The position numbers were made by a program, and so were the translations under genes. A model generated the notes under the pieces. It saw nothing but the letters and a program-made list of their open reading frames with translations, searched no databases and was not told the DNA's origin. From Fistulifera solaris (lineage: Eukaryota): a stretch of 64,000 nt of DNA. The stretch's first letter is position 1; every line of letters starts with the position of its first letter. The DNA lies in the NCBI GenBank assembly GCA_030295235.1, contig AP026131.1, forward strand, positions 1,364,001 through 1,428,000, in the 5' to 3' direction. Positions 22,815 to 49,000 of the stretch are shown piece by piece.

Positions 22815-25800
22815 CACTCCTGCTGGCCGAGGATGATCTTCTCTCCATTGATATTCATTATCCAACCTCTAAACTTGTGATATTTCACTCCAACTAATGA
22901 CTTCGTCATGTAATCTGCCATCATATCATCCGTAGGACAGTATTCAATTTCCACTTCTCCTTGCTTAATCAAATCGGTAATGTAGAAATACTTGATATCG
23001 AAATGTCGTGTCCGCTTCCCAGAACTCTCTTTTCCGTTCTCTTCCAACTTCATCGAACTCTGATTGTCTCCGATAAATGATGTTCGCGTTCACTTTAAAT
23101 CCTTGTGCTTCGATAAATCTTTTCGTCCAAATCACTTTCGAAATAATATCATCAATTGACACTAACTCTGCTTCTGTCGAACTTCTCGTGTTCACTTTTT
23201 GCTTTGTCGACACAGATGCAATTGTCCCTTTTCCGAGCGTCATTGTCGCTCCAGTATGACTTTTCATGTCCTTGTGGACCGCAAACGCCGCATCAACATG
23301 CCATTTAATTGTCTGCGTATCGTCTGCTTCAAGCCTCAAAACATCGTTCTGCGTGGCTTTCAAATAACGCAAAACTCTGATTAACTTCTGCCAATCTGCT
23401 TCATTTGGTTCCTTCACTCGTTGCCAAGAACGCGATAGCTGGCTGAATATCTTGTCTCGCCCTTTTACACAAAAACATTCCTTTCATTACGAATGTGTGA
23501 AATACTTCCGCTTTCTTCTTCGATAACGGGGGCTTTTCTCATCAATCTTGAAAAGCTTTTCGGTCCATGGTCCTTTCACTTTCTCATCCAGTTCTTCCGG
23601 GAAATCTTCGACCATTCCTTTCACGTAATCGACCATATCAACTTTCAATACACCGGGCTCGGAATAATCAAGCGTCATAGCAAGATAATCGTGCTTTTTT
23701 CCTCGAGTCCCTTCGACCTTCTTCACAGATCCATATTTTTCCTGCAACCATTTCAGAAAATCATCATTCACTTTCGGATCAACATGGCTCGACTTCAAAT
23801 CATCAACGTGCCACGTGAATTGTATGCTGCTTTCCATTCACCATCCGATTTGCAACGCACGGATCATACGGGTTTAGCTCAAATCCGATCTCTTGAATAT
23901 CTTTCACGAACTTCTTGTAATAAAGTAATGCCGAGGTCAACATTCCGTATAACGCCTTCAGCATAATCACATATAGCACTTTCTCGCCGTTCTCCCAAAC
24001 CACATAGCTTGCGTAGACTTCGGGAGCTATCTCCGACTAGTACGTCAACTAAAAAATCCACGGATCTTCATGATCACTCTTTCTCCGTTCTTCCTCGGAA
24101 CTTCGGTCTGTACAAATGCGTTTGGTACGTCACTTGTCATATTGTCTCTTCCTTGTTTTGCTTCAATCACTCCTGTAATGAAAATAGATTCCAACATCAC
24201 TGTCGGACTTGCCGCTTCTTCTTTCGGCGTGTACGCTCTCTGAGTGCTTCCGTTTGCACAAGTGCGCGCTTTTGCGGTTCCGTCGCGTTTCTCCGCTAAA
24301 AATATGAGGCTCTCCATAGCCCTTTGCTTCTCGGTGGGTGTCAGATCTTCAACTCTGGTCGGTTCGAATGTCGTTCGGTCATGCAACTGTTTCATTTCAT
24401 CATAGACCGCGTCTTCACCCTTTTTACCAAGTACTTTCAGTCCTTTCTTCAGACTGTAGGTTTGCGCAAACTGCTGCGCTTCCTTTGCTTGCCACTTTTG
24501 TTGATCATACACATGATCATCGCAATCAATATTGCTTCCTCTCGGGTATACTCAGTTGCTTCATGCTCTTGGCGTAATAATATGGCACTGATGTAAGCTA
24601 TACTTGCTCGGCTTCTTCACCGTTCGACCGCTTCGTGTCTTCTGCACATCTTCTTCGTCATTCACGACGTTGTCTTCTTCGACATTTTCTTCTGCTTCCG
24701 GCGATGGTTGGATTGTCCTCTTCGACTTCCTTGACTTCTTCGTCTTCGCTCTCTGCATTATCATCTTCTTCTTCGACGCTTTCTCCATCATTCACGATGT
24801 CATTATCTTCTTCAAAATATTCCTCTTCGGCTGGCTCGTCATAATAGCCGTCGTCTTCTTCATTTGCGACGTCAGTTTCGCCAAGAATTTCTGCTATTTC
24901 ATTCACATCGACGTAATCTTCTTGATCTTCGTCTTCATCGGCTTCAATTTTCGCATTTTCTTGTTCCACGAGTTCTTCTTCGTCGTCTTCTCCGACTTCT
25001 GAATCTTCCTCACGACTCACTCCTGCAATCCAAGCAGCGTCGTAAAGTACAGCTCCACACTTAGTTTCGACTTTCAATCCTTTCGGCATCTGTTCTTTTT
25101 CTGCCATTCTCTCGACTTGTTCGATCACTTGCTCTGTCGCAACTGGTGTAACTCGGTTTCGATTGATCGTTCTTCCGGTGCTCAAATCCATGAGCTCATG
25201 TCCTCCTTGATGATTTGCCAGTGGACGTAAATAGATGCAATCCAAAGTGCGCGGATCTACCGAATTCTTCTGTTTCGGGCTCCGTATGCTTCTGCACGTA
25301 AGTGCCAAACGGGATTTTGCAATGTTTCTCGTAGTCCAATACCTCTTGATGCATAATCATTCTCGGGCTAAAATTCTGAGAGATCCCATTCTTCGATGGA
25401 AAGTAGTTCAAGTGGCGGGCTGCGTTGAACGCTAAGTGCTTCACCATTAGTCTCGGTAGACGTTTGTATGGGAGTCGATGGTACACCGCCCTGTATCTCT
25501 CTTTCAATACACGATTGTTTCGCTCGGCTTCTGGCACATGCTCTTGTGCTTCCGCAAAATTCATTCTGACATGAAATTCATCTTCAATGTCGTCTTGGAG
25601 TGCACGGTATTCATTATCGCATCGGATCTCAACAATACGAAAGCCTGCCGCATTGTAAATCCGGAATACATCCTTGAGTGCTCCCTTGTAAACTTCGCTT
25701 GTCAAGTTTCCAATCCACTGCACGGTGCGATAGCGGATGTTCAGCGAAATTGTTCCCAAAAAAGTAAAGGCCGTTAACCTTCAACGTATCCATGCATAGG

Positions 25801-27680
25801 ATAACTCTGTGCTGCTTCTGATAGATGGCAGCTGGTACCGCTGACGTAATCGGGAGACAACCGGTGCTGGTTTCTTTCGTGTTGTCTTCCCCTTGAGGCT
25901 TCCTATGTCGGGTCCAAAAATCTGTTCTGCGAGCTGTATGTCTTCCGTCGTGACGGGATTGTTCCGAATAATATTCATTCGGATGATTGCTCGGAAATCG
26001 TCCAACGATGGTGTTCCGATTGCGTGATATAAATCTCTTGCTCGCTTCTCTTTCAAATTGACGGTGCGTGTAAAACGCCTTGTTTTCCTCCACGGAATTC
26101 ATGAACTGATACTCAGTGTTCGTTCGCATTGTCGGCTTAAATATATAAAGGTCATTACCATCGTTGACAAACTTCACCGTTTTGTTCGGTAAGTGTACAT
26201 TGAATGCCGATTGCTCGTGATCGATGCGTGATCTTGTAGCGTCTTGCAACTTCTCCAAAGTTGAACACGTTAATGATGCCCTCAGGGCTAAACCAAACTT
26301 CACCCCATCCAGGAAGATTTGCTTTCAAGTTTGACGTCATCATTCCACCATTTGTTGACACATTGATTTGATCGTCAACTTCTCTAATGTCGGTGACTAG
26401 CTTCTCATTGCAGAAAATCGTTGTCGTAGATCCCGTATCCAACAAGATCCAGTCTCGAGTATCCCACTTGCTCTGGAACAATTGCATAGCTTCAATCTGC
26501 GCGCCTGACCATGCCGTGCTGCTTGGTGCTTTCTGCTCTTCTGCATTATTTCCAGCTACGTTCGCATTTGACTGCTCTTCGTTTGCTTTTGCCTTGTTGA
26601 TCGCCCCATTCCGACTTCGGCTTGTCCTTGTATCGACAGTTCGGCGACTTGTGCCCTGCTTTTCCACAGCAGTAACATTTTCCTTCCATTTGCGCAAAGG
26701 ATAATTTAGGGTTTTCTTCTTCTTCGTTCGAATCTTTTTCTTCTTTCTTCTTGTCATTATTCTTCTTGTGCTCTGACGGCTTCTTGTCAAACTTGTGATT
26801 ACTCATCACAGTGACAGCCTGGACGACAGTTTTCGGGTATTGATCATTCCCGAGCGAGTACTGGGTGTTCAATCCACCCAAGATTGACCCGTATTTGCTC
26901 CTGTCCGAGTTGGCAATAATCATGTATGCCATAAACTGCTCGAATACTTCTTCGTCCTTCATCTTGAGTTGTTCCTTCAACTTCGGTAGCACAATTGGAC
27001 CGCCAATCTGCGATTCCAAAACTTCTCTGACTGACTTGAACCTTTTCATGTAGTCGTTGAGACTTTCATTCTCTTTCTGCTTGCATTCGATCATGTTTCG
27101 GAATGCATCGTATATCGTCGTCATCGGGTATCGGCTTTCTTGGTAGCTCATTGCATGCACTTGAATAGCCTTCAATAGTTCAATTGGATTGTCTTCGATC
27201 TTCTCCTTGAAGTCTTTTTCTCTGCTGGAGTTTCTGTTGCAGTGCTAGTGAGCACATCTCCCACATCAATCCATACGCTTTCGTCTTTGTGTTCACGTAA
27301 TGTCCATATCGACGTTGATGCTGCGCTCGTAATCTTCTTTGAATTTCAATTCAAACTCTCTGTTCTCAGCCGCCTTTTTCTCCGCTTCTGTTTGTCTGCT
27401 GTATTTTAGCTTGGGCTCAAACTGTGTGAAATCGATATCTTTTATCTCGTTCAATGCTTTGGCCACATCGGCGCCCGTGATCCCACTGCTTGATGTGGTT
27501 GATCATGAATTCTTTTGTCGTATCAAAGTCTGACGACTGCTTTGCTGACCCAATGTAAAACTTGTAGTCTTTGATGTCTTTCTTCTTGGCGTAGGGCTTC
27601 TCACTGTTGCCTCGTCCCGACTTCGGTCGGTTGGACTGCTGCCCTCTTCCGCCTCCTTTGCCTCTACCTCTTCCACTCAT
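22730..27680 (-). CDS. Copia gag-pol polyprotein, broken by many frameshifts
   Basis: Zinc knuckle CYCCGKAGHKSPNC; protease WILLDTGS; integrase RCDNEY...EHVPEAERNNR; RT KALYG and WHVDD; RNase H WHVDAAF, SSTEAEL, KRTRHFDIKYF; the ORF ends inside the 3' LTR. Confidence 0.92.
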
Positions 27681-27819
27681 GGCGATTTTAGGCTTTCAGG
27701 ATGTATTGCGGTGATTGTAAACTCAGTTACGTTCTCTTTTGGCTTGGCTGTTGGCTTGTGCTGATGACGTTGCACTTTCGGTGCTTTTCAATTCTTTTTC
27801 CGTGCCTTTTGTGAAAGAC

Positions 27820-28146
27820 TGTTGAACTCTTTCACTACCTGTAGAATATTCTAACGAATCCTATAAGGATCCCTGCAGGTAATAGATAGGTTGACAATGT
27901 TTTCACTAAATACGATTGATCCTAAGAGTCTTTCACAAAAGTAAGCCTGTTGCTCATCATCGTTCATTTCCTTCTCTTGTTGGCTTTTCTCTTCAACAAA
28001 TAAATTCCTACTCTCTACTTGATACTAATCTTCCACGTCATCTCTCAATGTCGCATCATCATCAGGTTGTTGCACCTCTCATGACTTTGCTAACAATTCC
28101 GTCTTGTGAACTATCGGTGTTCAGTTCCTTGACTTCACCTCCAACA
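27820..28146 (-). repeat. 5' LTR of the copia element
   Basis: Direct repeat of 22488-22814. Confidence 0.97.
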
Positions 28147-30145: not shown

Positions 30146-31027
30146 ATGGATAATAATGCAGGAAGTCTTTCCACTCTCCTTGCGAGCGCAGCGGCATATT
30201 CTTGCAATGCCACGAAGCGTTCTCCTGTTTGTCCCGAGGAAGTGCGAATCTTCAATAACAAAGTTGATCTTCGGCTAGCTTCGAGGGAGTATATGGAGGA
30301 ACCATCTGGTTTGCCACCCAACTGCTGGGACGTATCGGAAGTGACAGACTTCAGCGACTTACTTCGAGAAATGCCAACTTTCAATGAACCCATTGGTAAC
30401 TGGGATACTTCAGCCGTCACTAACATGGCCAATCTGTTAGTGCGTTCTCCATCATTCAACCAGAATATCGGCAATTGGGATACATCCACTGTCACCAGTA
30501 TGTATGGAATGTTTGCGGATGCTTCCTCATTCAACCAAAACATCGGTAACTGGGACACCGCTAAGGTCACCAACATGGGATTTATGTTCTTCGGTGCAAA
30601 AGCATTTAATCAAAACATTGGCAAATGGAAAACGAAAGCTGTCACCAGCATGGAAGTTATGTTCAATGGGGCTGAAACATTCAACCATGACATTGGCGAC
30701 TGGGATACAGCCGCAGTTGTCAACATGTACGGAATGTTCACTGGTGCTTCGGCATTTAATCAGAACATTGGTGAGTGGAACACATCAGCCGTCCTTTCCA
30801 TGTATCAAATGTTTTATGATGCTGTGGCATTCAACCAAGACATTGGTGGGTGGGACACAACATCCGTCCTTGACATGTATGAAATGTTTGGCAATGCTGA
30901 AAAATTTAGTCAAAACTTGTGCGCTTGGAGGGGATCGCCCGCAGATAAAAGGGAAATGTTTGTTGGTAGTGCTTGTGATTTTCCTGGCACACCGACCAAC
31001 ACGGAATTTTGCACACCATGCACATAG
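30146..31027 (+). CDS. DUF285 (BspA-like) 25-aa repeat protein
   Basis: About 8 repeats of [20 protein letters not shown]; C-terminal NLCAW...MFVGSAC cap; start uncertain. Confidence 0.9.
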
Positions 31028-31772
31028 CTAGAGAGGGAGAGGGGAGGCTGAGAGAATGAGAATGCTGCAGTTACATTGAACCTAAATATTTCGAATTCTG
31101 TCAGAGGTCAGAGTGTACAAGTACCGGTACCAGTACCGTAGAAATGAGTTGTGTCCTCCTTGTTCCTTGGTGTTTGTTGCTCGATGTGGGCTTAAATGTA
31201 GAGTTCCTCCTGAATTTTCTATGCCGAAGTAATAACATGACAAAAGTCTGTATTTGTTATTTTGTACTCCGTATTTGTTATTTGTAATTGGTAATATAGT
31301 CTGTAGTCTGTAGGCTCGAGTATCGAGTATCGATGAGTCACGAGTCACGAACCGCTGGATGTTCCATGTTCAGTATGGCCTCGTCGTAAGTTGTCAGGAT
31401 TTTTTTCTTTCTGACGACTAGAAGCACTCTTCACTGTGCACAGGTCAAGGCATGGTGATGGTGGATGGTGGATGGTGAGTGGTGAGCCGGGGGCGTAAAT
31501 ACTTGTACCTCAATCCTACGTACTTGCAGTACTCCGGACTCCGGAGTCCGGATTAGCTCGTTTCTCACTCATGCGGATTGGTACTGGTACGGTACACAGT
31601 ACGGTATCCAGTACCGGTACCTCTTGTCTCGTTACATAGTCACACGTCACACCCGTTTTCCACGACTGACTCCTGCTCGCAAAGATCTTGCATCTTACTT
31701 GGACGCTCGTCCAAAGGTTTATTTTTTTTACTAAGAAAAAACTGAAATACCTATAAGTATTCCAACTCCACC

Positions 31773-33045
31773 ATGAAGTGTAAACCTGACGTTTCAATTG
31801 ACCAGGTAAAAGCAAAGCGGCAAAGCGAAGATGATGAGGATTCATATGTCGCAATGGATTCATCAGTCGTAATGGTAGAAGAAATGCTAAGTAGCGAATA
31901 CGACACAGAAGAAGATGGCAATCTTCCGGCCGAGCATGCACCACATCCGGCTCCGCAACCCGCCGAGCAAGATCCACATCCGGCACCACAATCCGCCAAA
32001 CGGTGGAACGATTATCCGCTGAAAGATATTACGGAACCGCACGAACATGATGTTTTATGTGGGCGTGGCGGTGAGTATAGCGTATGGTGGAATATGGTTT
32101 GTTGGATGTACAATTACTTGTGCTTAATTTTTTTTTGCTCGTCGTTACAGGACATTCGAATAACCACAAAGGTAATAAGAATTTTAGGGAGATGGTCGAA
32201 GGTTTTAAAAAAGAATACATCGGGTTAATAAAAATGGACAAGACGAAATTAGCCGAATACATTGTCGATGCTTGGAGAGACCAAGATCCTCCCGGACGTT
32301 TCTTGAAAAGGACGAGGCTGGAAAGTGGTATGAGGTGGGAGATGATATTGCTAGAGGAAAAACGAGCCAGGCGCTCCGCGAAAAGAAACCAACGAAGGGA
32401 AAGCGGTTTGATGTGGGAGACAAAAAAGCGTTAGAACCGAAACAAGACGAATTCGTAAGTCGGTGTGCAATTGAGTCTACATGAATTATTGTAACAACAA
32501 CAAACTGATTTAGATTCTTTGAACAGGGAGAATTCGAGAAGTCAGACGAAGCACAGTTCACTCCGTTTGGTGAGGAAGCAAACTCGCTAAATGATGAACT
32601 TGGTCTTCATTTTGATCGAGAAGAGAGCTTTGCTTGTGATTTCCCATCTTGCTCAACCTTGCTTTGCAATGATAACTTGGTCTTGACCCCCGGTGACGTG
32701 TCCAGTTGTTACATAGATAGCTCGGAGAACAGTGACGAGAGCCCACGAGGAGTTATACTAACCCATGATTTGCTCGAGAGAGATATGTCCTACAATTTTG
32801 GACATAATAAGGCATTTGAAGAAGATTTAGATTGGGAGGTTTCATGCTTGAAGCGCAAATCAAACACAGGTTTGCAGGTTGATTCTACCAAGCGCAAACC
32901 GCACGAGGTGCCATGGCGTAAGGCGGTTATGTTGAAGCGTGTCGAACCAGCATTAGATGATACACATACAAATAGTATGAGGACTATGGATGAGGAAATA
33001 AGGGTTTTGAGTCTTGAACTTGAGAAGAAGGCAAGTCTACTTTGA
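31773..33045 (+). CDS. DUF6824-domain protein, copy A (intron 32071-32150, second intron from about 32456; frameshift near 32310)
   Basis: PHEHDVLCGRGG|HSNNHKGN, IVDAWRDQDPPGRFL, WYEVGDDIARGKTSQALRE; 3' exon structure uncertain. Confidence 0.8.
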
Positions 33046-33354
33046 TCTCAGAACATCCGACCAGGGTGTGTATTTTTCACTTCTGCCCTGGACGAGTTCA
33101 GATATCTGGCCTTCCAATCAGTTGAGTCCTAAGGTAGGAGTTATGAATAGGTAGAACAAAAAGTTATCCAGTCGATCTTCTTATCTTAGTTCCTATCGTA
33201 TCTGGATGATTCATTCGATCCGTGTTGATGAGTTCGTGGACTACGTACAAGTAGTGCAATTAAAATGTGAGGCAAGCAAAACGGACGAACAAGACTGACC
33301 GTCATGAGTCACGGTTATGTTCGTTGGTGCTTATTACTCCGTATTATATAATGC

Positions 33355-33610
33355 TGAAATGCATTCGATCAAAATATTGGCATCGGAAAAGTAAACCTGT
33401 CACCAGCAGGGAAGTGATGATCACTGGAGAAGTGTTCAACCGTAACATTGGTGACTGGGATGCATCCGCCGTCATCAACATGAACGCGGAATGTTCACGG
33501 ATGCTTCGGTATTTTGAATCAGACCATCGGGTAATGGAACACATCCTGTCAATTCCATGTATCAAAGATTTTATGATGATGTGATATTCAACCAAGATAC
33601 TGGCGGTTGC
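33355..33610 (+). pseudogene. Degenerate fragment of a DUF285 gene
   Basis: DNA similarity to about 30595-30850; translates VFNRNIGDWDASAVINM with indels. Confidence 0.75.
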
Positions 33611-34417
33611 TGTGTGATACTCATGGTTTATATTTCGTGTATCTTTAAAGTTGACTGTAATCGCGTCTCCTTCGGCGTGACTAAACATGGCCGATGAAAC
33701 AAGCAAGCGCGAACGCGATCGAATAATGAAAACAAGAAACGCCCGAGACAATCTTTACTTGTACTCAGAATTCTAGACAAACCTTGTGACGTTTTTGTGG
33801 TTTCTGGGACTAATGACTAATTCCAAACAAGCGATGTACGGTGTACAGTGCCTCATGATCATCCTATGTCGTACTCCGGAGTCCGGAGTACCTCGTTTCT
33901 CACTCATGCACATTAGTACGGTACACGGTACCTGGTACCGGTACCCAGCACAGCACCTCTTGTCTCGTTACATGTTACATAGTCACACGTCACACCCGTT
34001 TTCCACGACTGACTCCTGCTCGCAAAGATCTTTACTCGGACGCTCGTCCCAAAAGGTACAAGTTTCCCTCGTCGTTAGGGCTTTACTTACGATGGTAAAG
34101 ATATCTGAAGAAAGATATGAACGTACCAGGTAAAGATGTAAAAAGGATCGTAAGGTCGTAAAAACGTCTTAGAGAAATTGTGCGTTGAAGGCTAGCAGCA
34201 AGGTGTTGAAGAGGAAACCCCGAAGGGACGAAAACCTCTCGGACGTGGCGAGGAAGCCATGTCGCATCGTGATGAACATGACCGTATTTTCCACGACTGA
34301 CTCCTGCTCGCAAAGATCTTGCATCTTACTTGGACGCTCGTCCAAAGGTTTACAAGTATTTCAACTCTCTCCTCTTGTACAAATCAAACAAACTCGTAAG
34401 GATTGCAAATCTTCACC

Positions 34418-35642
34418 ATGAATTGTAAACCTGACGATGAACAAGATAGAGATTTGTCAATCGCAAAGCGGCAAAGCGAAGATGATGAGGATTCATCAGT
34501 CGCAATGGATTCATCATCAGTCGCGATGGTAGAAGAACTGCTAAGTAGTGAATACGACACAGAAGAAGGTGGCAATCTCCCGGCCGAGCATGCACCACAT
34601 CCGGCACCGCATCCAGCGTCGCATCCGGCAGAGCAAGATTTACATCCGGCTCCGCAACCCGCCAAGCAAGATCCACATCCGGCACCACAACCCGCCAAAC
34701 GGTGGAACGATTATCCGCTGAAAGATATTACGATACCGCACGAACATGATGTTTTATTTGGGCGTGGCGGCGAGTATAGCGTTTGGTGGAATATGGTTTG
34801 TTGGATGTACAATTACTTGTTCTCAATTTTTTTGGCTTTACGTTACAGGACATACGAATAAACACGAGGGTAATAAGCAGTACAGGAAGATGGCTGAAGA
34901 TTATAAAGAAGAATACATCGGGTTAATAAAAATGGACAAGACGAAATTAGCCGAATACATTGTCGATGCTTGGAGAGACCAAGATCCTCCCGGACGTTTC
35001 TTGAAAAAGGACGAGACGGGACGTATCAGGAAAAAGGACAAGACGGTAAAGTGGTATGATGTGGGGGATAAAAAAGCTAGAGAGAAAACGAGTCAGTTAC
35101 TCCGCGAAAAGAAACCAACGAAGGGAAAGCGGTATGATGTGGGAGACAAAAAAACTAGAAAGAAAACAAGCCAGGCGCTCCACGTAAAGGTACCGAAACG
35201 AGACGAATTCGTAAGTCGGTGTGCAATTGTGTTTACGTGAATTATTGTAACAACAAACTGACAGACTGGTCACATTTTCTTATTCATTGTAAAGGGAGAT
35301 CTTGATGAGTTCGATGGTGTATTGCTAACTCCATGTTGTGATGATAGCTCAAACAACAATGACGACAGGCCAATAGGACCCTTGCAAATAACTCGGCAAA
35401 TCATTTCAGATTGGACGCTGGATGCATTCGATTTCATCTCCCCGCGTGTTCAATTCTGTTTTGAATACCACGCTCCATCATTATTTGTATACCACACCTA
35501 CAACGCTCCTAAGCCAGTGTGTCCATCTCCAAACACTCAAGGACTTGATGGCCAAGACGAGGCACATCCAAACACTCCAGGACTTGATGGCCAAGACGAG
35601 GTACATCTGCCGGTTCGTACTGTGTGTTGCGTCATTTTGTAA
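34418..35642 (+). CDS. DUF6824-domain protein, copy B (first intron has a GC donor at 34770)
   Basis: PHEHDVLFGRGG|HTNKHEGN, DPPGRFLKKD, WYDVGDKKAREKTSQLLRE; 39-bp tandem repeat (PNTxGLDGQDE x2) in the 3' part. Confidence 0.75.
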
Positions 35643-35809
35643 GGATTAGAAAATAGTACACATTGAAATAGGATGAAGGCTATACAGAACATCCGACCAA
35701 GGTGTATAAGTCACTTCAGCTCCGGATGAGCTAAGGTGTCTGATCTTCCGATCAGTTGAGCCCTAAGGTACGAGTAATGAATACATAGAACGAAAAGTTA
35801 TCAGAAAAT

Positions 35810-36050
35810 CGGCATCGGAAAAGTAAACCTGTCACCAGCAGGGAAGTGATGATCACTGGAGAAGTGTTCAACCGTAACATTGGTGACTGGGATGCATCCG
35901 CCGTCATCAACATGAACGCGGAATGTTCACGGATGCTTCGGTATTTTGAATCAGACCATCGGGTAATGGAACACATCCTGTCAATTCCATGTATCAAAGA
36001 TTTTATGATGATGTGGTATCTACCAAAATATTGGCGGTTGTTGTATGATA
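35810..36050 (+). pseudogene. Second degenerate DUF285 fragment
   Basis: Near-identical to 33380-33610. Confidence 0.75.
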
Positions 36051-36362
36051 GTCATGGTTTAAATTTCGTGTATCTTTAAAGTTGACTGTAATCGCGTCTC
36101 CTTCGGCGTGACTAAACATGGCCGATGAAACAAGCAAGCGCGAACGATCGAATAATGAAACAAGAAACGCCCGAGACAATGTATACTCAGCATACTCGAC
36201 AAACCATGTGACGTTTTTGTGGTTTCCTGGACTAATTCCAAACAAGCATCTTGTAATGTCGTCTATAAGAAATATATATTATGCAATGCCCTTGTCTGTA
36301 TCAGATACACTCGGGCTATCTACGTTTGTTTGGAAAAAGTGGCTCTCCGTCGGAACCACAAC

Positions 36363-38077
36363 TCACCCATCATCGGATTTACCCAGCAAACCAAAATATT
36401 CTTCAATCAAGGGTTGAATATCCTGAACCAAGGCACGACGAACAGCCATTGTATTGGTAGCAAAGTGCGGAAAAATAAAACAATTGGACACAGACCACAA
36501 GGGATGCTCTGGGGGAAGGGGTTCCGGAGCGGTCGTATCCAAAATCGCGTATCGGAATTGTTTCGCCTGCAAGGCCTGTGTCAAAGCTTCGGTATCGACA
36601 ACTCCACCACGAGACAGATTCAATAGTCCGGCGTGGGAAGGCAACTGGGAAAGAACATCATCATTAATCAGATTGCGTGTTTGCTCTGTCAGAGGACAAA
36701 GAGGTACCAAAATGTCACACTCAGACGCCATCTCCTTAAGATCGCCATAATATTGCAAATGATATTCGGCTTCGGTGGCGGCATTCCTAGATTTTTCTTG
36801 AACATGGTACAGAATCTCGGTGTTCGGAGCCAGACAACGAATTTGGCGTACCAATTCCTTCGCAATTGTTCCCATGCCAATGAGTGCGATTCGCGATTCC
36901 TCCAGAGGCTTGCCCGGGATATTCCACGTCAAATTCCATCCTTGGGACGGAAAGGGAACACCCTGTTGCAATAGTGCATCCCGCAGTCCCAACAGAATGA
37001 ATGCCAGTGCATATTGCGCCACATGCGACGTAATCGAGTGTCGACCGGCTTGTTGCACCGCAATCTTGCGTTTGTGACAAGCCCTTATGTCAATGTGATC
37101 CAACCCTGCACTCATGGTAATCAGCAACGACACGGAGGAGGGCAATGCTTCTATTTTTGAGCGTGGCATAGGCGTCAAAATGTCGACAACGACAACGGAA
37201 GGCTGCGTTGAGTCGTCTTTTTCACAACAATCATTTCGGACGTATTCACTAAAGGAAGTGGAGGTTGACAAAGCAGTTGAAGCACCACAGGCTTTCGAGC
37301 ATAGAACACGCACCACTGAATGAGTCCACGATCAATTTGTTCGATGCGTCTTTGAATCTGTTGACAGTTATGCTCCAACAAATCACAATCGTGCTTGTGA
37401 GTCTCCAAACTCGCCAGCACTTTTTGTAGCATGAGCTGAAAACTAATGCGCATATCTTTCGTGACATTGAGGCAATGTACATCCTTCCAACCAGCCTGTC
37501 GCATAGCTTGCATCGCCTGTTCCGGTCGCAACAAATCCGGAATCGCATTGTCTTGCGCAAACTGCTCGACTTGGTCATCCGTCGTCGTCGGTCCCGCCAT
37601 GACATCGCAAAAGACAAATGCACCACCTTGTCGTACCAAACGAAAGGCTTCTCGAAACGCCTGTATTTTACTTTGTGCATGAATGAATGCATCTTGCGAA
37701 AAGGCCAAATCAAAAGCATGGTCAGGAAAGGGCACTTGTTCAAAATCTCCTTCCACAATTGGAATCTGGTTGTGCAAATTCGATTTTGTGACGTTGTGTT
37801 GCGCTATACGATTTTGTTGGGGACAGACATTCAAACAGACGACTTTGCCCTTTTGGTTCGTCGTCGAAGACGCAATACGGATGGCACTGGCACCGGTTCC
37901 GCTTCCTAAATCAATGTATTGATAGTTTGGCGCAGTGCGACGATGCTCGGGAATCAATGTCATGGCCAAGTCGTAGTACATGTAATCGGTCATTTGATGT
38001 GCTGCTTGTGGATAGGCATCCTTTTCTTGCAAAGATACATGATCCCATTTCCCAAAATGAATGTTGTTTTCGTCATC
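36363..38077 (-). CDS. Class I SAM methyltransferase (sarcosine/dimethylglycine- or MTHB-methyltransferase-like) fused to a D-isomer-specific 2-hydroxyacid dehydrogenase; 5' end apparently missing; frameshift in an A-run near 37220
   Basis: MTase: NIHFGKW, YIDLGSGTG, CLNVCPQQN, FDLAFSQDAFIH, LVRQGGAFVFCD. Dehydrogenase: SAGLDHID, LIGMGTIA, CPLTEQTRNLI, NLSRGGVVD, LDTTAPEPL, FPHFA. Confidence 0.8.
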
Positions 38078-39109
38078 GGTTTGAGAGTGTGGTGAAAATG
38101 TTAAGATTGTTGGACTTGTGGATCACTCCGGTTGCGCAGAAGATCCTGATGGTTTGAATCATGACGAGCTTTTGAGATTAGTCAATTCAGCACTTTGCAT
38201 TTCCTATTTCGACGCGACAAAGCTCGGGTCGTCTCGTAAATTGCACACAACGGAGACCCCTGAAGGTACAAAAGCACGCAACACGATGCACAATCGACTA
38301 CAAGCAGATGCATTCTTGCCATGCGGAGGACTTCCGAATGCGAATGCAATTGATTGCTCCAGTTATAATAATTTTATTTTGGCAGATGGACGTCCATTAG
38401 CACCGCTAACTGTGGAAGGAGCCAACCTATTTATCACAAAAGACGCCAGAAAATCGATCTTTTAAGATGCTGGTGTCGTTATTGTCAAAGATTCATCTGC
38501 CAAACAAGGGCGGTGTGATGACATCGTCGTACGAGATCTATGCTGCTATGCTGTTCTTGGAAGAAGAATTTGTCGCCAACAAAGCTCAAATTGTGCAGGA
38601 AGTGTTGCAGAAATTGCGCATGTTGACGAAATTGGAAACCCGGAGCTTTTGTTTCGTGAGTATGAGGTGCATGGAAGTTCCCTTCCCGAAATTTCTCAAG
38701 TCATTAGTAACTGTATCAATGCGGCCACCGATGCGCTGACGATTGCGTTGGATTCGTTGTCGGAAGCTGATCAGCAAGCTCTTTGCCTCTCTTTCAAAAT
38801 GTATTTACCCCAAACGATTGCCGATTTAGCCTTTGATCGACTTCACGAGAGAGTCCCGAAGCAATACATCTAGAATGCGATTAGCTCTGCTTTAGCCGCG
38901 AAAATGGTATACAAGAAAGGGACGACTTATGTAATGTCACTCCCCAAAGAAAAGTTGGACATTTTTGTTTCCAATACTTAGAAAAAGAGAAGGAAGTTGT
39001 CGTTTTGCTGCAATCATTGGAGAATGTGGAAATGTCAGAGGATAAGAAACGAGCCGTCATTCAGCTGTTGGAAAAATGTGGTACCCGGACGGCTTTGGGG
39101 GTCTTCTAG
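38078..39109 (+). pseudogene. Partial duplicate of the 3' third of the glutamate dehydrogenase gene
   Basis: Collinear with 48560-49582; nonsense changes (TAA 38463 vs CAA, TAG 38871 vs AAG) and indels; no 5' part. Confidence 0.92.
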
Positions 39110-40188
39110 TTTTTCAGTTTAGGCTCTCCATAAAAAACGATCAGCAATAAGCAATAAGGTAACTTGCCATTTTGTGATTCCAACGTCTTTAGTCGGGGTA
39201 GCTCAAACTCTCTGATCCTTCGCGCGGCAATGGTAGTCTGGCAACTCACGTGGAGGATCGATTGGATTGCTTTGGTATTCCTTTCGCATCATGATTGTCG
39301 ATCGTCAAATGCCTGCTTCGGCTTTATCCGTGATAAACTCTCCCTAGACCCTAGAGAAACTGGTTCGTGATTGCTCGAGTCTTTGAGTCTTGGGTCATGA
39401 GTGTTAGAGTGTATATACTTGTATAAGAAGTGATTCTTACCTTCGCCGCTATCCGCGGTCCGCGGCGCGCGATTATTCGCGTTGGTGGCGAAATTCGCTC
39501 GAAATTGCAAAGTCTTAGTCAGCCGTGATACATGCTGTACATGATATCTAATACTAAAACACCCAAGGCGACTATACAGAAAAGACCCTGATAGTGAAAT
39601 GTAGCGAAAGCTCAGCAGTCAGCAGAATATGGAGTGCGTAGTGTGTAGTACGGGCGGAAAAACACTTCAAGGCCCTTATCTCCTTGAGATCTGAGATCAC
39701 AAGCTTGTATCGTATAGCACGTATAACTCCACGTGTCAAAGAGTCACTTGTTGCCGGGAAAACCCAAAGATATTTATGGAAGCGATCGTGCCAAAAATCG
39801 TTTCCGTACACAAAGTCATGAACAGTGAACCCCACCTTTTTATCATAGATCTTGCTTTGACTTCATTTTACTCAGTGAAACTAATCAGTGACCAGTGACC
39901 AATGATTAGTGATTCAGGAACGCACAAAATAATACTAATGTTGCTGGAATAATGAAGAGCAAGACCGAGCTCCTGAGACCTGAGAAACAGTAAAGTAAAC
40001 AAAAGACTAGACCTTGAGAGTCCTTATCAACTAAGCCCAACAGATCATGCTTATTCACTACCCGTCTTTCCTTTCGTTCCCCAACTTCTACGAAGAGCCG
40101 ACTTGGCCTCACAACTTTTGAAATCATCAAAACGTTGTCCTCGTTTTCCTCTTTTTTTCTCTTTGAGTAAACAAAATCAAAGCAAAGA

Positions 40189-43100
40189 ATGAAATTCATC
40201 AGCAGTTTGATATTCGCTGCGGCTCTCCTCGACTCTGTTACAGATGCTCAGGTGAGTCTGAACTCTTGGAAAAGTATTTTGGACGCGAACCACAAGTCCT
40301 GATGTTGCCGCCCTTTTTCGTTTTCCAGGTGACGCCGCGCTTTCTCCGAAAAACCAGTACAAAGAGCTTTTTCTGGTTGCGCTCCCGCGCGAACTCAGGG
40401 CCAATCTTGTCAAGTAACTTACAACACGAACGCCGACAAGTATACGAGTGTCAAAGGCATGGCGTGCGCTTCCGGGCTAGTGTGCTCGGAACTCAACGAC
40501 AACGGCACAGATGGCGCTATCTTCACAGGAATTTGCAATACAGAGGACAGTTATGGTCTTGCAGATCCCGACGGTAACAGCAAATGCGGCTCTCGTCGTG
40601 TAACAATCTGTCATCGCACTTGTTCGCCAACCAACCCTTGGGTGCGAATCACGATTGATTCGAGCGCATGGTATGGGTCGAGGGGAACCGTTGGAGCACA
40701 TCAACAGCACGATGCGTCGAAAGACTGCAACAGGGCCGATCTTTCTCCATGGGGTCCCATCACGAAAGATTATTTGATCAGAGACCACGGAACTCGCTAC
40801 GATGTCAAGGCCAGAAACCCTACGTGGAACTGGTCTCAAGAGAAAGCGTACTGGGCTTACTGGGAACGCGCGTGCCCTTACGTGCGCTCCACAAAGTTGA
40901 ATGGCAAGATGTGCTGCGACTGGACCAAAGGCGAATGCTGCGGTGTTCATCCCAACGACAAGTGTCCTTTGGATCCCAACAAGATGGAGCCAGGGCAGTG
41001 CGGTTGCGGAGTCCCGGATACAGATACGGACCGTGATGGTGTTGCGGATTGTGTTGACCGTTGCCCTGGACACAATGACAGAATGGATGCCGACAGAGAC
41101 GGCATCCCTGATGGATGTGACAGATGCGCTGGAGGCGACGACAAGATTGACACTGACAGAGACGGTGTGCCCGACTTTTGCGATGTTTGCCCCAACAACC
41201 GATTCGTTTCCACAACCAGCGGTCTCAAGGGCTGCACTTGTGCTGCCACCGAAGCCCAATTGCGAACGGGATGTGCGGCTCAGTTGGTAGCATGTCCTAG
41301 ATGTGGTTGTGGACGGCAAGACATAGATACGGATCGCGATGGAACCTTGGACTGCTTCGATGTCTGCCCCAACGATCCCCTAAAGACAACAAGTGCTGGA
41401 CGATGTGGTTGCGGTCGACCGGAAACGGATACAGATGGTGACGGTCTACCAGACTGCTTGGATGTGTGCCCCAACGACAGAAACAAGACCACATGCGCAG
41501 GCCATTGCGGTTGTGGAGCCTCAGAGGTGGATTCGGATGGGGACGGTATGCCTGACTGTAAGGATGGATGCCCTGGGGATCGAACCAAACTTACTCCCGG
41601 AGTGTGCGGATGCGGAGTTTCGGATCGAGATTCGGACACGGACGGAACACCTGACTGCAAGATGGATGTCCTTCGGACAACCTCAAAATTATTCCTGGTA
41701 TCTGTGGATGCGGTGTGTCGGATAGAGATTCGGACTTGGACGGAACGGTTGACTGCAGAGACGAATGTCCGCGTGATCCGCTCAAGACGAAACCAGGCGT
41801 GTGCGGTTGTGGCGTCAGTGATGTTGATAGCGACAAAGATGGAACCCCTGACTGTAAAGATGCCTGTCAAGATGATCCTACGAAGATTGAGCCAGGCCTC
41901 TGTGGATGTGGCAAGAAAGATTCGGACAACGATGGAACATGTGATGCCAACGACCAGTGCCCGTTGGATCCAAACAAGAACCAGAAGGGCAAGTGTGGTT
42001 GCGGTGTGAGTGAAACGGATTCTGACCTTGACGGAACACCGGATTGCATCGATGCATGCCCCATCGATAAGACCAAGGTTGCTCCAGGAAAATGCGGTTG
42101 CGGTGAGGCTGACTTGGATACGGACAAAGACGGTACCATGGATTGTGACGACGATTGCGTCGATGATCCAAAAAAGATTGCCCCAGGGGTGTGCGGCTGT
42201 GGCGTTTCAGAGGTTGATTCTGACAAAGACGGAATCCCTGACTGTGTCGATCAGTGCCCTCAAGATGTTAACAAGATTGTTCCAGGAATTTGTGGATGCG
42301 GTCAATCGGAAAAAGACTCGGACGGTGACGGAACGGTGGATTGTCAGGACAGATGCCCTACCGATCCTTTGAAAACCTGCCCAGAAAAGTGCGGTTGTGG
42401 CAAAATGGAAACGGACACGGACGGCGACGGTACGCCAGACTGTTTGGATACATGCCCCGCCGATCCCAACAAGATTACCCCAGGGGAATGTGGCTGTGGA
42501 ACATCAGACGTCGATTCGGATGGAGATGGTGTCCCTGACTGTAATGACAAGTGCCCTGTTGATCAAGGAAAGACTACCCCAGGGCAGTGCGGCTGTGGCA
42601 AAACGGATGTGGACACGGACAACGACGGAACGGCTGATTGCAACGACAAGTGCCCTACGGACCCCAAGAAGACCGACCCGGGCAAATGCGGATGCGGCTT
42701 GGTTGATGCAGACGCCGACGCTGACGGAAAATGCGACCATGAAGATTCATGCCCCAATGATCCCACGAAGAACGATTTAGGCGTCTGTGGTTGCGGCGTA
42801 GCAGACACGGATGCTGACAACGACGGAACACCTGATTGCGATGATGACTGCCCAGCGGACCCTTCGAAAATCGCTCCTGGGGCTTGTGGATGTGGCACAC
42901 CGGATAATGATAAAGACGGCGACGGAGTCCCTGACTGTAATGACAAGTGCCCTGAAGACGCTGACAAGACGGAACCAGGATTGTGCGGATGCGGTTCTCC
43001 GGATGTGGATGGCGACTCGGATGGAGTCCTTGATTGTGATGACGTTTGCCCGGCCGATCCCGAAAAGGCGACGGAAGAAGGAGAATGCGGATGCGGCGAG

Positions 43101-44759
43101 CCGGAGACGGATTCGGACAACGATGGAACGCCTGACTGCAATGACTTGTGCATTAACGACGTTTACAAGACCGAACCTGGGTTGTGCGGATGCGATGTGC
43201 AAGACACAGATTCGGACAATGATGGAACACCCGACTGTGACGATCTTTGCCCCACGGACCCCTCCAAGACCACCGACGTTGACACAGACGGAGACGGTAT
43301 TTACGACTGTGAGGACGAATGCCCCTTGAACCCTGACAAAACCGATCCTGGAATTTGCGGGTGCGACGAGCCTGATATTGATTCAGACAACGATGGTATC
43401 ATGGATTGCAACGAAGTCCGTGAAGTCCTCAACTTCACCAGTTCCAATCTCATTGCCACACCCGAAAAGTACAAGGAGTGCTTCAAGATTTACAACGGCG
43501 GCAAGAACGACACCACGGCTCCCGAGTTTGTGGAAACTGCCGCTGCTTATTGCCTTGCCGATTGCAAGGCGGGAGCGATGTGCATCAAGGTCCAAGCGGC
43601 TCCCGGAATTCAACTTGGCAACACCGAGGCCTGGTTCAAGGACTACTCGTGCTCCGACAGTGCCATTCAGCCCCTAGCTCCTGGAATCACGCTCACGCGC
43701 GACCTCAACGGCAAGGTCATTACATGGGAAGGTTGTTTTGAACTCCCCGAAGGCGCCACTGGAGAAAACATTCAGATCCACGCTGACTGGGGTTACTCCG
43801 GCAGCATTTCGCTCAACAACACCGCATCGACTGTCATCGGTGCGTCCATGGACTACCCCGAATGTCTCGTTCCGGAAGGCAGCCCCGAAGACACCCCCGT
43901 CGAAACACCTACCGAAATCAGTTCCTCCCCAGTCGCCGCTCCCACTGGTGCGACGATTGACAACGATCCTACGGTCGGTTTCCCCACGGCCAACTCGATT
44001 GGTGACGGCGAATCGGGCGGTGGTTACGGTGATCCTCACTTGAAGACATGGATGGGAGAAGTCTACGATTTTCATGGTGCTTGTGATTTGGTGTTGGTCA
44101 AGACTCCCACCTTCCACAACGGAGCCGGTCTCGACGTCCACATTCGCACCAAGATCCGTGATGACTGGTCGTTCATCTCGGATACGGCGGTTCGCATCGG
44201 CAATGATGTCTTGGAAGTCGGAACTCGTGCTTACTACTACTTGAACGGAGTTGCCGGTGCCGAATTGCCCGCCACGGTCGGTGGATTCCCTCTGACTTTG
44301 ACCCATTTTGGCACCAAGCGTCACAAGTTTGAGATTGATATGGGCCACATGGGCGTGATTGTCATCAAGGTCTTCAACGAGTTCTTGGCCGTAGAAGTCG
44401 ATAACGCACACAGCGACGGCTTCGGTGACAGTGTCGGTCTAATGGGTGCGTTCACGGATGGCAGTTTGGTGGGACGCAATGGTGAAGTTCACGCTGATCA
44501 CAACGAATTTGGCTTGAGCTGGCAAGTTCATGACACCGACGGCAATTTGTTCCAGAAAGTCGAAGGCCCTCAGTATCCTCAATTGTGTCAAATGCCCACT
44601 CCTTTGGCCCTGAAGAATCGTCGCATGTCCGAATCGTTGGTCAGCTTTGAAGATGCCAGCAATGCTTGCGCCGATTGGTCCGAAGAAACGCGCGAGTCTT
44701 GCATTTACGATGTCATGTCGACGGGTGATTTGGACATGGCGGAAGCGGGTGCCTTTTAA
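40189..44759 (+). CDS. Large secreted protein with thrombospondin type 3-like Ca-binding repeats and a C-terminal VWD domain (intron 40252-40328; frameshifts near 40350 and 41660)
   Basis: Signal peptide MKFISSLIFAAALL; more than 20 units of DxDxDGxPDCxDxCPxDPxKxxPGxCGCG; GDPHLKTWMGEVYDFHGACDLVL and CIYDV motifs of VWD. Confidence 0.88.
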
Positions 44760-46085: not shown

Positions 46086-49000
46086 ATGACACTTTGGTTG
46101 AAAATCACTGCCTCTTCTTTCTCGCGACGACTATTGACGCACCGCAATCGTACTAGCTGGTTTCGAGCATTCGCTTCGAATGGTCATGACTCAAATCCGA
46201 ACGATGCGTACCGCATTCCGGGCATGTCGCATCAGTATGGAAGTTTGGGTGAGACGCCGACTTCCCTCCATAAATCACAAGAATCGACGGCGTGGCAAGC
46301 ATCTCACAATATCGAAGTGCAGCGTGTGACCCAAAAAGCCATGATTTATGAACTCATTCATGAACAGACAAGAACGATTGAATCCGTTGTACCTTGGTTT
46401 CTCGAAAACATGCCGGCGGTGTAAGTAATGATGGAGAGGCAATGATAAAGATAGCGAGCGAGTGAGCCGTTGGGGAATAACCCTACAAAACGCACTCTAC
46501 CTTCGAGCAATGTCTATGCTCTATATTTTTTCTCATCGATTGCTTCTATTTCACTTTGCAGTTACTTCCAGCAAGTACCCGAACGCTACCGCATGGATCA
46601 CATGAAAGCCATTGCGGCCGTCAAGGATGCGAACATGGATTTGTATCTCAATTTAAAGTCGCACACACTTGATGGTCGCACCGTCTTGACGTTTATTCGT
46701 CCCGGAACAGCCCCCGGTACATTGTTGCACATGGTGCAAGAATTGCCCTACAAGTATAGTCTCGAAATGCCACTCAGCAGATTGCATGTCTTTTCGACCG
46801 TTGATGAAACCATGAGTTTGAATATGTTCGTGTACGGGCATCGTCCCGTGCACGATGAAGATGTCGATATGGATCTCATGGCACTGGCGGAACCGATATT
46901 GGAGTACGCGGCGAATGTGCAACAGGGGATTGTTGTGGATGAAGAACTGCCGCTGTCACCTTTGTTGGAGAGAGAATCGCTTGTCGAATATATGAAAATG
47001 TGTCGACCGACCTATGTGCAAATTGGTCTTATGAATCCGGCGCGGTTTTGTATGCAGCGTTTGTTGTTTGCGGAAGTTTCGGGAACCGAAGGAGTTGCAG
47101 TGCACATTGGTTTGGCGACAGATCAGACGCCCGAAATGCATTTACCGACGAGTGGACCCTTGTATTGGGTGGAAATGGCTGTAGCGAACAGTATTCCGCA
47201 AGTAGCGTTAGAAAATTTGTGACAGTTGTTGTACCATCACAAATTTGATGTTCAACGTGCGCGTTTGGATATTGTGCCTGATGGTGAAAACGGGAGTGTG
47301 ACGATATTGCGGACATTGATCAGTCCCACATCGTTGTTGTCGGCCGACTCCACCACCGACTGGCAAACATTGGCACAAGAACTCAAGCGGGCAAAATGGT
47401 TGGATCCGGATACCGTTGATTTAGTTTTCGGGAAAGAGCCTTGGTTAGGGATTGCGCGAGGGGAAGTCATTACTGCCATGTCTTCGTTGATGCATCCGGT
47501 ATTGACCAAAAATCAACAGCATGGCGTATTCGAAAGCAAATATAGCCGAAGTTGTCCATCAGCACATTGGTCATGCTGCGTTGATTGCGGATCTCTTCTT
47601 GGATCGTTTTCATCCCGACCATCCGCTGACTGACGAGTTGTATCAAAGCAGACGTGACGACTTGACGCAGTTGATTGCGAAGGAAGTTGAGGATCAGGTG
47701 GCTACATCTATTCTGAGTAAAATGCTGGAAATTGTTGATTTTACCTTGAAAACGAATGCGTACATGCCGAATCGGTACGCTTTGGGCCTGCGACTCAATC
47801 CGTCCGTCATGCATGAGCCGGGGAATACCGCCGAACTGCCGTTCGGAGTATTGTTTGTTCATGGTCGTCGTTTCAACGGCTTTCATGTACGATTCCGTGA
47901 TATCAGTCGAGGAGGTCTGCGATTGGTGACGCCCGCCAACACGGAGTTGTATGCTTTGGAGTCAGCTCGACAATACGACGAATGCTACGGATTGGCATTT
48001 GCACAACAACTCAAAAACAAAGATATGTAAGTATGAAATTGTAGTTACAGGCTTTCGCTCTGGATTTTGTTGCAAGTCTAACATTTTTATCCGCTCTAGC
48101 CCCGAGGGAGGCTCCAAAGCCGTGGCTCTGATCAATACCACAGGATTGAACGACTCGGGCAAGTACTTTGTGATGCGCAAATCAGTGAAAGCATTTACAG
48201 ATACCATATTGGATCTTATTGTAGAAACGGAAGAAACAAAGAAGTTCGTTGTGGATCGCCTAGGTCGACCAGAAGTTCTTTATTTGGGCCCGGACGAACA
48301 GATCATTCCCGGGGACATTGAATGGATTGTGAAGAGAGCGGCGGAGCGTGGGCACAATACACCAGCCGCCTTCATGAGTAGTAAACCTAGGGCGGGAATC
48401 AATCACAAACAATTCGGTGTAACAAGTGAAGGAGTGAATGTGTATTTAGATACAGCTCTTCGTCGTGTGGTGAATATAGATCCAAAGAAGGACTCTTTTA
48501 CCATTAAAATGACTGGGGGTCCCGATGGAGATGTCGCGGGCAATGAGATTAAAATTTTGGTTCGAGAGTACGGTGAAAATGTTAAGATTGTTGGAATTGC
48601 GGACCACTCCGGCTGTGCAGAAGATCCTGATGGTTTGAACCATGACGAGTTGTTGCGACTGGTCCGTTCGGCATTATGCATTTCCCATTTTGATACAACA
48701 AAACTTGGACCGTCGGGCAAGCTGCACACCACTGACACCCCTGAAGGTACCAAAGCCCGCAATACGATGCACAATAGGTTGGAAGCCGATGCATTTTTTG
48801 CCGTGTGGAGGACGTCCGAATACAATTGACTGTTCCAATTACAAGAACTTTATAAAAGCGGATGGCCGTCCTTCAGCACCGCTCATTGTTGAAGGTGCCA
48901 ATCTGTTTATCACAAAAGATGCCCGCAAATCGTTGTTTCAAGATGCTGGTGTTGTCATTGTCAAAGATTCATCGGCCAACAAGGGGGGCGTGATTACATC

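Follow-up and report, generated by a model that had tools for sequence, protein, structure and literature searches.

A methyltransferase-dehydrogenase fusion in Fistulifera solaris

We analyzed a 64,000-nucleotide stretch of the genome of the diatom Fistulifera solaris (GenBank assembly GCA_030295235.1, contig AP026131.1, positions 1,364,001 to 1,428,000), hereafter the window, in which the minus strand at 36363-38077 encodes a methyltransferase (MT) domain followed by a D-isomer-specific 2-hydroxyacid dehydrogenase. The window copy is a partial duplicate of a diatom fusion gene and not a working gene, and a full-length in-frame copy, ~98% identical, exists in the same organism. In the window sequence as given, the open reading frame (ORF) 38032..37175, whose frame is open back to 38122, overlaps a second minus-strand ORF, 37316..36363, in another frame. 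The locus contains the following features (SAM, S-adenosylmethionine):

37218..38077, minus strand: coding part of the MT domain, TpMMT-like, class I SAM-dependent methyltransferase, equal to residues 57 to ~342 of the relative P0002 (tblastn)
36366..37217, minus strand: coding part of the D-isomer-specific 2-hydroxyacid dehydrogenase (PF02826, tblastn), with its stop codon at 36363-36365
37892..37912, minus strand: SAM-binding motif I, DLGSGTG, read from the sequence
37218..37222, minus strand: A5 homopolymer, site of the frame change; read-derived contigs carry A6
36861..36878, minus strand: dinucleotide-binding motif GMGTIA (GxGxxA variant of GxGxxG), aligned with GLGRIG of GRHPR
36465..36611, minus strand: catalytic triad codons, Arg 36611-36609 (SRG), Glu 36524-36522 (PEP) and His 36467-36465 (PH)
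38078..39102, plus strand: rearrangement junction at 38078, then an inverted glutamate-dehydrogenase (GDH)-like gene fragment (self-comparison, ELFV_dehydrog match)
35800..36247: 3' flank, a duplicated segment that is a 92% copy of 33368-33832 (self-comparison)

The upstream ORF matches Methyltransf_11 (PF08241, E 1e-18, 68.2 bits against a cut-off of 21.2) and has both the fold and motif I of a class I SAM-dependent methyltransferase, its best solved relative being SDMT (2o57, E 8e-15). The downstream ORF matches 2-Hacid_dh_C (PF02826, 135.7 bits, cut-off 25.1) and 2-Hacid_dh (PF00389, 31.1 bits, cut-off 24.6); it combines the NAD(P)-binding PF02826 domain with the Arg-Glu-His triad of D-isomer-specific 2-hydroxyacid dehydrogenases. 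All motifs named in a preliminary description of this DNA (NIHFGKW, DLGSGTG and others) are present, and the triad that it had read as SRG, PEP and PH aligns with that of human GRHPR (2gcg/2h1s), the best solved relative of the dehydrogenase (E 1.5e-29).

With the 624-aa relative P0002 as a tblastn query, residues 57-348 fall on 38077..37199 and residues 339-623 on 37223..36369, an alignment far above chance (E 5e-175) that is colinear across the two window frames and contains neither a stop nor inserted DNA. The window copy differs from P0002 at 37 of 566 aligned residues and is free of stops across 286 + 284 codons. When the 286-aa downstream piece is aligned with NCBIfam dehydrogenase models, the match begins at about profile position 47; the first ~45 positions of the fold (PVVLQLL...MIVVKK) precede the frame change. 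The upstream frame thus supplies the initial strands of the dehydrogenase, and the second ORF is no stand-alone gene. In an alignment of 45 family members, motif I (D112-G116), the dehydrogenase glycines G454 and G456 and the triad R543, E572 and H591 are invariant; motif I and the triad are present in the window, and the window copy retains 87 of the 88 family-invariant columns, the sole exception being Y290N. The earlier proposal that the two domains form one protein is borne out by abundant fused diatom homologues and by same-organism contigs that read through both domains in one frame.

The frame change lies in a homopolymer

We compared window positions 35000-39500 with Logan contigs of four coded runs, X1-X4, from one organism; such contigs drop variants. 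Runs X5-X9, small shares in wetland, freshwater and sediment metagenomes, did not enter this comparison. Every X1-X3 contig that covers 37217 carries one extra plus-strand T, that is, A6 on the coding strand, and the depth with the extra base equals the total depth in each run (27.8/27.8 in X1, 17/17 in X2 and 14.1/14.1 in X3; X4 has no row). Whereas the MT and dehydrogenase frames of the window as given differ by one base, they are in frame in these contigs, as the preliminary description had anticipated in placing an extra A near 37220. Addition of one A to the run at 37222-37218 gives ...MIVVKKDDSTQ..., where relatives have VVKEDDSTQ. In X2, one contig of 1498 letters extends over 36526-38022 and differs from the window by 30 substitutions and a single gap, so both domains lie on one continuous sequence.

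We consider the one-base frame change very probably a homopolymer error of the assembly and not a mutation, since the window contains other homopolymer-length errors. X1 contigs without substitutions relative to the window differ from it in homopolymer length at 38781 (T3 vs T4) and at 38971. Both pyrosequencing and nanopore-only assemblies exist for F. solaris, according to a preprint (bioRxiv 10.1101/2021.11.10.468027). Weighing against an assembly error, the A6 contigs differ from the window by ~2% elsewhere; together with the loss of variants from Logan contigs, this leaves room for a private A5 allele. A genuine frameshift, by which the window copy would be a doubly disabled pseudogene (truncated and frameshifted), is nonetheless unlikely. 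It would take the A5 of the window sequence at face value, in a copy that lacks a promoter or start codon and hence selection against frameshifts, with rare variants dropped by the contigs; but no contig of the three runs has A5, the remaining ORF is unbroken over 570 codons, and further homopolymer discrepancies occur elsewhere in the window. An intron was also considered and rejected, because the only GT..AG pairs in the overlap span 37 or 40 nt, neither of which is 2 mod 3, and because relatives are colinear there.

A similar run was observed in the parent GDH-like gene (~47951-49575, plus strand), in which a T6 run at 48794-48799 breaks the frame within the conserved ADAFLPCGG. Unlike the parent gene, the duplicate at 38078-39102 reads ADAFLPCGG in frame, as judged by Pfam and DNA alignment, and the T6 run is probably another homopolymer error of the assembly. 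The two ORFs of the parent gene drew almost no matches in the PDB, and the gene was identified by Pfam and DNA alignment.

The window copy is truncated at its 5' end

Homology to relatives ends at 38077, and position 38078 adjoins a GDH-like fragment (38078-39102, plus strand) that is an 82% copy of 48559-49575 and matches ELFV_dehydrog at 38118-38462. This fragment stands in place of the gene's first 56 codons and promoter. The corresponding 56 N-terminal residues of P0002, with the DHFHFSHFYW and IKLKLYS motifs, gave no tblastn match anywhere in the 64 kb; the N-terminal hallmark of the fusion family (DxFHFSxxYW ... IKLKFYS) is therefore missing from the window copy, whose homology starts at P0002 residue 57. 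Between the NIHFGKW motif and the stop upstream of it at 38123-38125, the frame contains no ATG. The preliminary description had noted both the missing ATG and the GDH duplicate from 38078, and its suspicion of a 5'-truncated copy is confirmed by the absence of the N-terminal region from the window and by an X1 contig that crosses the junction.

The read-derived contigs resolve this locus into two forms. Contigs of X1, X2 and X3 depart from the window exactly at 38078 and continue ...KLKLYSRILH in frame with DDENNIHF, which is the N-terminal region of relatives. A window-identical X1 contig of 681 letters spans the junction (38049-38729) at a depth of 17.9. The departing contigs and the junction contig together indicate a full-length form and the junction form of the window. 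At the 3' side, contigs of the near-identical copy diverge from the window at ~36260-36309, where they have loose ends; given the duplicated 3' flank, the window holds a ~1.8-kb partial duplicate within a patchwork of duplications. The 5' truncation is real: the first ~56 codons and the upstream region were lost at the junction at 38078. The locus offers no in-frame start, and the DNA upstream is the inverted GDH fragment. That the gene is intact here, with both the frame change and the 5' break being assembly artefacts of a locus for the full 620-aa protein, is very unlikely: homopolymer-length errors in the window and contigs with an intact N-terminal region in the same organism would agree with it, but the window-identical contig crosses the junction, the break and the start of the GDH duplicate fall on the same base, and the 3' flank is duplicated too, the other copy leaving the window sequence there. 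An intron at the 5' break was rejected as well: there is no AG before 38078, where GDH-derived sequence starts at that very base, no first exon lies within 26 kb upstream, and the Skeletonema intron sits 8 codons further on.

The full-length copy corresponds to the locus annotated FisN_16Lh025. The window is 98% identical to the fragment model GAX26208.1 from this locus, and the substitutions of the full-length form match peculiarities of that model (E to A, Y to C). GAX26208.1 (P0204), of 230 aa, begins at an internal Met, and its C-terminus reads ...GLIQCEYV; this ending fits a spurious intron (~37311-37249) running into a stop from a C-to-T change at 37238. The substitutions of the full-length form include a C-to-T change by which this odd C-terminus ends in a stop. 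Runs X2-X4 are probably RNA, since only genic stretches are covered and X2 has a poly(A) loose end, and X1 is probably DNA, since all 30 bins are covered. In place of the GAX26208.1 model, the RNA-like contigs point to a fused ORF of full length. They carry only the letters of the full-length form and give no cover at 38171-39500, and the full-length FisN_16Lh025-type copy is probably the transcribed one. No transcript of the window haplotype was seen among the X2-X4 contigs, which can drop variants, so that its absence is not implied.

Between the window and the contigs, the 25 listed differences (24 more are not listed) comprise 16 synonymous and 9 non-synonymous changes. Both near-identical copies carry a change at a conserved site, Y290N in the window and Y to C at the nearly invariant Y110 in the other. 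Constraint may be relaxed on both of them, and the main gene may be the paralogue GAX25165.

A family of multi-domain proteins in diatoms

A search for relatives restricted to longer proteins gave 55 matches among 1963 candidates, and the Pfam families of the MT and the dehydrogenase (2-Hacid_dh) occur together in 52 of these 55. Intact two-domain homologues, for which the preliminary description had proposed a search, thus exist. A C-terminal class II aldolase-like domain (Aldolase_II, PF00596) is also present in 40 of the 52 (~860-940 aa), and the other 12 have none (578-718 aa). Named sources include Skeletonema, Thalassiosira, Cyclotella, Seminavis, Cylindrotheca, Amphora, a Bacillariaceae metagenome-assembled genome and Chromera velia. 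Of the 4847 clusters that an exhaustive search of representative sequences found at E <= 0.001, only 19 reached E <= 1e-30, indicating a compact family. The 45 aligned members have a mean column identity of 53% and a conserved N-terminal DxFHFS motif; SAM motif I and 30 other columns of the MT domain do not vary among them.

We built a quick IQ-TREE phylogeny (LG+G4) of 70 MT domains, with rows chosen by hand and truncated sequences left out. The 26 fused MT domains from diatoms all fall in a single clade (SH-aLRT 100), surrounded by diatom single-domain proteins of TpMMT type. The window copy groups with P0002, P0003 (the GAX25165 cluster), P0004, P0005 and P0006 in a two-domain clade (99), which is nested inside a three-domain clade (99), suggesting that the aldolase-II domain was lost in the F. 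solaris lineage.

Four proteins of 1131-1234 aa (P0051, P0062, P0063 and P0075) have an extra N-terminal domain and are four-domain forms; P0063 is encoded in metagenome locus L032, and P0071 is an 800-aa form with the extra domain. In P0051 this domain matches ELFV_dehydrog (E 1e-14), and a profile of the five extra N-termini finds phenylalanine and leucine dehydrogenases in the PDB (E 1e-23). Proteins with MT and aldolase-II domains and no dehydrogenase also exist (P0060 and P0321 of Chromera). The metal motif HxH...H of the aldolase-II domain is kept in the long sequences, as HLHT in 32 of 33 and NHG in 33 of 33. Solved relatives of this domain are adducin heads (1e-22), 3ocr, TqaM, NovR (7e-13) and fuculose aldolase (1e-12). 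MtnB was rejected as its identity: for P0026, no MtnB model occurs among the 25 families listed. The best aldolase-II model for P0026 is the generic NF005451, at 137.5 bits against a cut-off of 207. In a separate observation, locus L024 (48-2947) encodes an MT of single-domain type (64% identical to P0215 vs 48% to the fused type), followed on the same strand by dehydrogenase and aldolase-II domains, and may represent a second, independent fusion.

Relationship to TpMMT

The Thalassiosira pseudonana protein XP_002291473 (P0291) belongs to the diatom proteins of single-domain type, and the fused domains branch from this family. This protein, called TpMT2, is reportedly TpMMT (Kageyama et al. 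2018). With the MT domain of GAX25165, a paralogue in F. solaris, it shares 41% identity, and TpMMT and the window MT domain share 40-44% identity. One search for DMSP (dimethylsulfoniopropionate) genes uses XP_002291473 as 'TpMT2' (PMC11347835). The preliminary description had likened the MT motifs to those of sarcosine/dimethylglycine N-methyltransferases, a broad group to which it related several S-methyltransferases of 4-methylthio-2-hydroxybutyrate (MTHB), namely TpMMT and DsyG/DSYE; TpMMT did prove to be the nearest characterized relative, whereas the link to DsyG and DSYE is only distant. DsyG and TpMMT themselves are 31% identical, as given by Wang et al. 2024 (PMC11306096). Neither the fused nor the window MT domain is a TpMMT proper, for which a single domain and at least ~70% identity would be expected: the proteins are multi-domain, and 40-44% lies below the ~70% identity to T. 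pseudonana TpMMT stated as the published criterion in mLife 2022 (PMC10989797). We also considered the single-domain family as DSYE clade E and set this aside; no Fragilariopsis or Nitzschia name occurs among the 120 relatives listed, a weak argument given that most rows are nameless. In the searches made, no F. solaris single-domain TpMMT-type protein was named, except the fragment model GAX26208.1.

The TpMMT-type and fused genes are frequently neighbors. P0291 is 80% identical to P0251 (ACHAXR_013457), a single-domain protein adjoining the three-domain ACHAXR_013456, and TpMMT-type and three-domain genes have consecutive locus tags in two annotated genomes. Sorting 36 metagenome loci by tblastn with domain queries left 19 with the 5' end of the fused gene and at least 1.7 kb upstream, 11 that begin inside or too near the gene, and 6 with the single-domain type only. 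In 14 of the 19 assessable loci (L001, L005, L006, L008, L013-L019, L021, L033 and L036), or ~10 of 14 distinct sequences once near-duplicate loci are allowed for, the fused gene has a TpMMT-type gene head-to-head with it on the opposite strand, 0.5-1.5 kb upstream. These neighbors are 51-69% identical to P0215, and both centric and pennate diatom-like contigs share this conserved arrangement.

Proposed function in DMSP synthesis

Among marine sulfur compounds DMSP is a major one, and dimethylsulfide is formed from it. To our knowledge, genes of the algal pathway are known for the S-methyltransferase step only. Its intermediate MTHB is reportedly of D-configuration (Gage 1997; Summers 1998), and TpMMT, the nearest characterized relative of the MT domain, S-methylates D-MTHB. 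We propose that, in the intact protein, the dehydrogenase domain would use NAD(P)H to turn a 2-oxo acid into a D-2-hydroxy acid, which the MT domain would then methylate. The likeliest substrates would be 4-methylthio-2-oxobutyrate (MTOB), converted to D-MTHB and then to 4-dimethylsulfonio-2-hydroxybutyrate (DMSHB), which are consecutive steps of the algal transamination route; three-domain forms would go on from DMSHB to DMSP. That the fused dehydrogenase and MT carry out these two steps is plausible and unproven, and we put it forward tentatively, at somewhat less than an even chance. It is our best guess because the nearest characterized MT acts on D-MTHB, and because the extra domains fit a chain from amino acid through 2-oxo, D-2-hydroxy and methylated to decarboxylated product. 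NovR performs its chemistry on 2-hydroxy acids. The head-to-head linkage to TpMMT-type genes and the fusions to amino-acid dehydrogenase-like and NovR-related aldolase-II domains strengthen the idea of a role in DMSP synthesis.

Several observations weigh against such a role. Of 57 positions whose residues TpMMT-type proteins conserve and the outgroup seldom has, only 18 are kept in at least 90% of the fused MT domains, and the window copy keeps 25; the retention of 18 suggests that substrate specificity may differ. The TpMMT-type neighbor is missing in 5 of the 19 assessable loci (L009, L011, L012, L030 and L032). Among the N-terminally extended forms, P0051 alone retains the catalytic Lys and GxGxxG of amino-acid dehydrogenases. 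The closest solved relatives of the dehydrogenase are glyoxylate/hydroxypyruvate reductases and formate dehydrogenases, and no NCBIfam model reaches its cut-off for this domain. A paper in mLife 2022 (PMC10989797) excludes GAX25165 and EJK59074 as 'TpMMT-like proteins with extra domains' whose function is unknown, with MT domains less than 50% identical to TpMMT.

Several of these observations would also fit a different pathway, in which the fusion reduces glyoxylate, hydroxypyruvate or another 2-oxo acid and performs an N- or O-methylation, giving a different osmolyte or metabolite such as a glycine-betaine-type compound or a methylated hydroxy acid. The best solved match of the MT is the sarcosine/dimethylglycine methyltransferase 2o57 (E 8e-15), its best NCBIfam model is sarc_dimgly_tmase, and the dehydrogenase is closest to GRHPR; 39 of the 57 TpMMT-specific positions have diverged in the fused domains, and the tree would allow the head-to-head pair to be a relic of the duplication that made the fused domain, so that the linkage would reflect only tandem duplication. 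However, the SDMT model NF041675 scores 73.6 bits against an equivalog cut-off of 550, the nearest relative that has been characterized S-methylates a D-2-hydroxy acid, and the added amino-acid dehydrogenase-like and NovR-related domains do not fit glycine methylation. We regard this pathway as possible but less probable.

Quite unlikely is a catalytically inactive MT domain, a scaffold or regulator beside a TpMMT-type enzyme that would perform the methylation while the fusion supplied the reductase, with or without aldolase-II. Most diatoms with a three-domain gene do keep a separate TpMMT-type gene beside it, and the same 39 of 57 positions are changed, but motif I and the 30 further MT columns are invariant across the 45 members, and the searches named no single-domain TpMMT-type F. 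solaris protein other than the fragment model.

Overall, we somewhat favor the combined explanation of a partial copy of the fusion gene with an intact copy elsewhere, an error in the A run and a function in DMSP steps. A fuller scheme is doubtful, in which the multi-domain family would comprise DMSP synthases: an MTOB reductase, an MTHB S-methyltransferase, a C-terminal, NovR-related and metal-binding aldolase-II domain acting as an O2-dependent DMSHB decarboxylase and, in four-domain forms, a Phe/Leu-dehydrogenase-like domain making MTOB from methionine. If it were true, the Fistulifera two-domain form would be a reductase-methyltransferase that ends at DMSHB or needs a separate decarboxylase.

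Other features of the window

Two direct repeats of 327 bp, 100% identical and 5.3 kb apart (22488-22814 and 27820-28146), enclose a stretch in which the AT skew is strong (-0.28 to -0.30), and four minus-strand ORFs between them matched no Pfam family; the stretch 22488-28146 may be an element of long terminal repeat type. A patchwork of diverged segmental duplicates occupies 30400-36250, with the pairs 31656-32500 and 34287-35256 (78%) and 30598-30852 and 33357-33609, and contains genes with DUF285 (30146-31024) and DUF6824 (34746-35237). On the plus strand, 40459-44759 contains long Cys- and Asp-rich ORFs with many CGCG..DTDxDGxxDC repeats; their similarity to thrombospondin type 3 calcium-binding repeats is weak and stays under the Pfam cut-off. 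The minus strand at 5528-7759 encodes a phosphoenolpyruvate carboxylase (PF00311, E 3e-246).

Comparison with known systems

Our literature search covered main texts in one library. For MTOB reductase or DMSHB decarboxylase from 2022 on, it found Wang et al. 2024 only; for GAX25165 or EJK59074, mLife 2022 only; for diatom DMSP with hydroxyacid dehydrogenase, one unrelated review; and for diatom 2-hydroxyacid dehydrogenase with methyltransferase and class II aldolase, nothing on this family. Wang et al. 2024 (PMC11306096) describe the decarboxylase step of the pathway as still lacking knowledge and a predicted bacterial MTOB reductase as inactive. What appears to be new is the functional reading, together with the linkage to TpMMT-type genes and the forms with four domains; the existence of the family was already known. 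Because a TpMMT paralogue is fused to a dehydrogenase, TpMMT-type genes lie head-to-head with the fusion and two further domains with a chemistry that fits the remaining steps have accreted, the family provides clonable candidates for the missing reductase of diatom DMSP synthesis and, in three-domain forms, possibly for the decarboxylase. The window copy itself is of little functional interest and illustrates recent segmental duplication and homopolymer errors.

GAX25165 of F. solaris and EJK59074 of T. oceanica belong to the same family as the window copy. At the 90% level GAX25165 (P0316, 621 aa) clusters with P0003, which has 75% identity to the MT domain of the window; the window copy differs from GAX25165 in lacking the first 56 codons, in its frame change and in being closer (98%) to GAX26208.1. 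TpMMT and the fused MT domain share a methyltransferase family, and their genes are head-to-head neighbors in many diatoms, but TpMMT is a single domain of ~310 aa, whereas the fused form is multi-domain. GRHPR (2gcg, 2h1s) has the fold, the Arg-Glu-His triad and the dinucleotide-binding motif in common with the fusion dehydrogenase, which differs in sitting behind a methyltransferase and in reaching no NCBIfam equivalog cut-off. Oxidative decarboxylases of the NovR/CloR type (9ryg) match the aldolase-II domain of three-domain relatives (E 7e-13), a domain absent from the window; this domain fits adducin heads (1e-22) better, and fuculose aldolase (1e-12) about equally well.

The closest analogue in logic is DsyGD of Gynuella sunshinyii (PMC11306096), a bifunctional MTHB S-methyltransferase and DMSHB decarboxylase in which one polypeptide carries out successive reactions of the transamination pathway. 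The MT domains of DsyGD and of the diatom fusion are both members of the broad PF08241 group, and that of DsyGD is given as 31% identical to TpMMT. DsyGD differs in that it is bacterial, its activity has been demonstrated, and its fusion partner is a ureidoglycolate-lyase-like decarboxylase (PF04115) in place of a 2-hydroxyacid dehydrogenase or aldolase-II domain.

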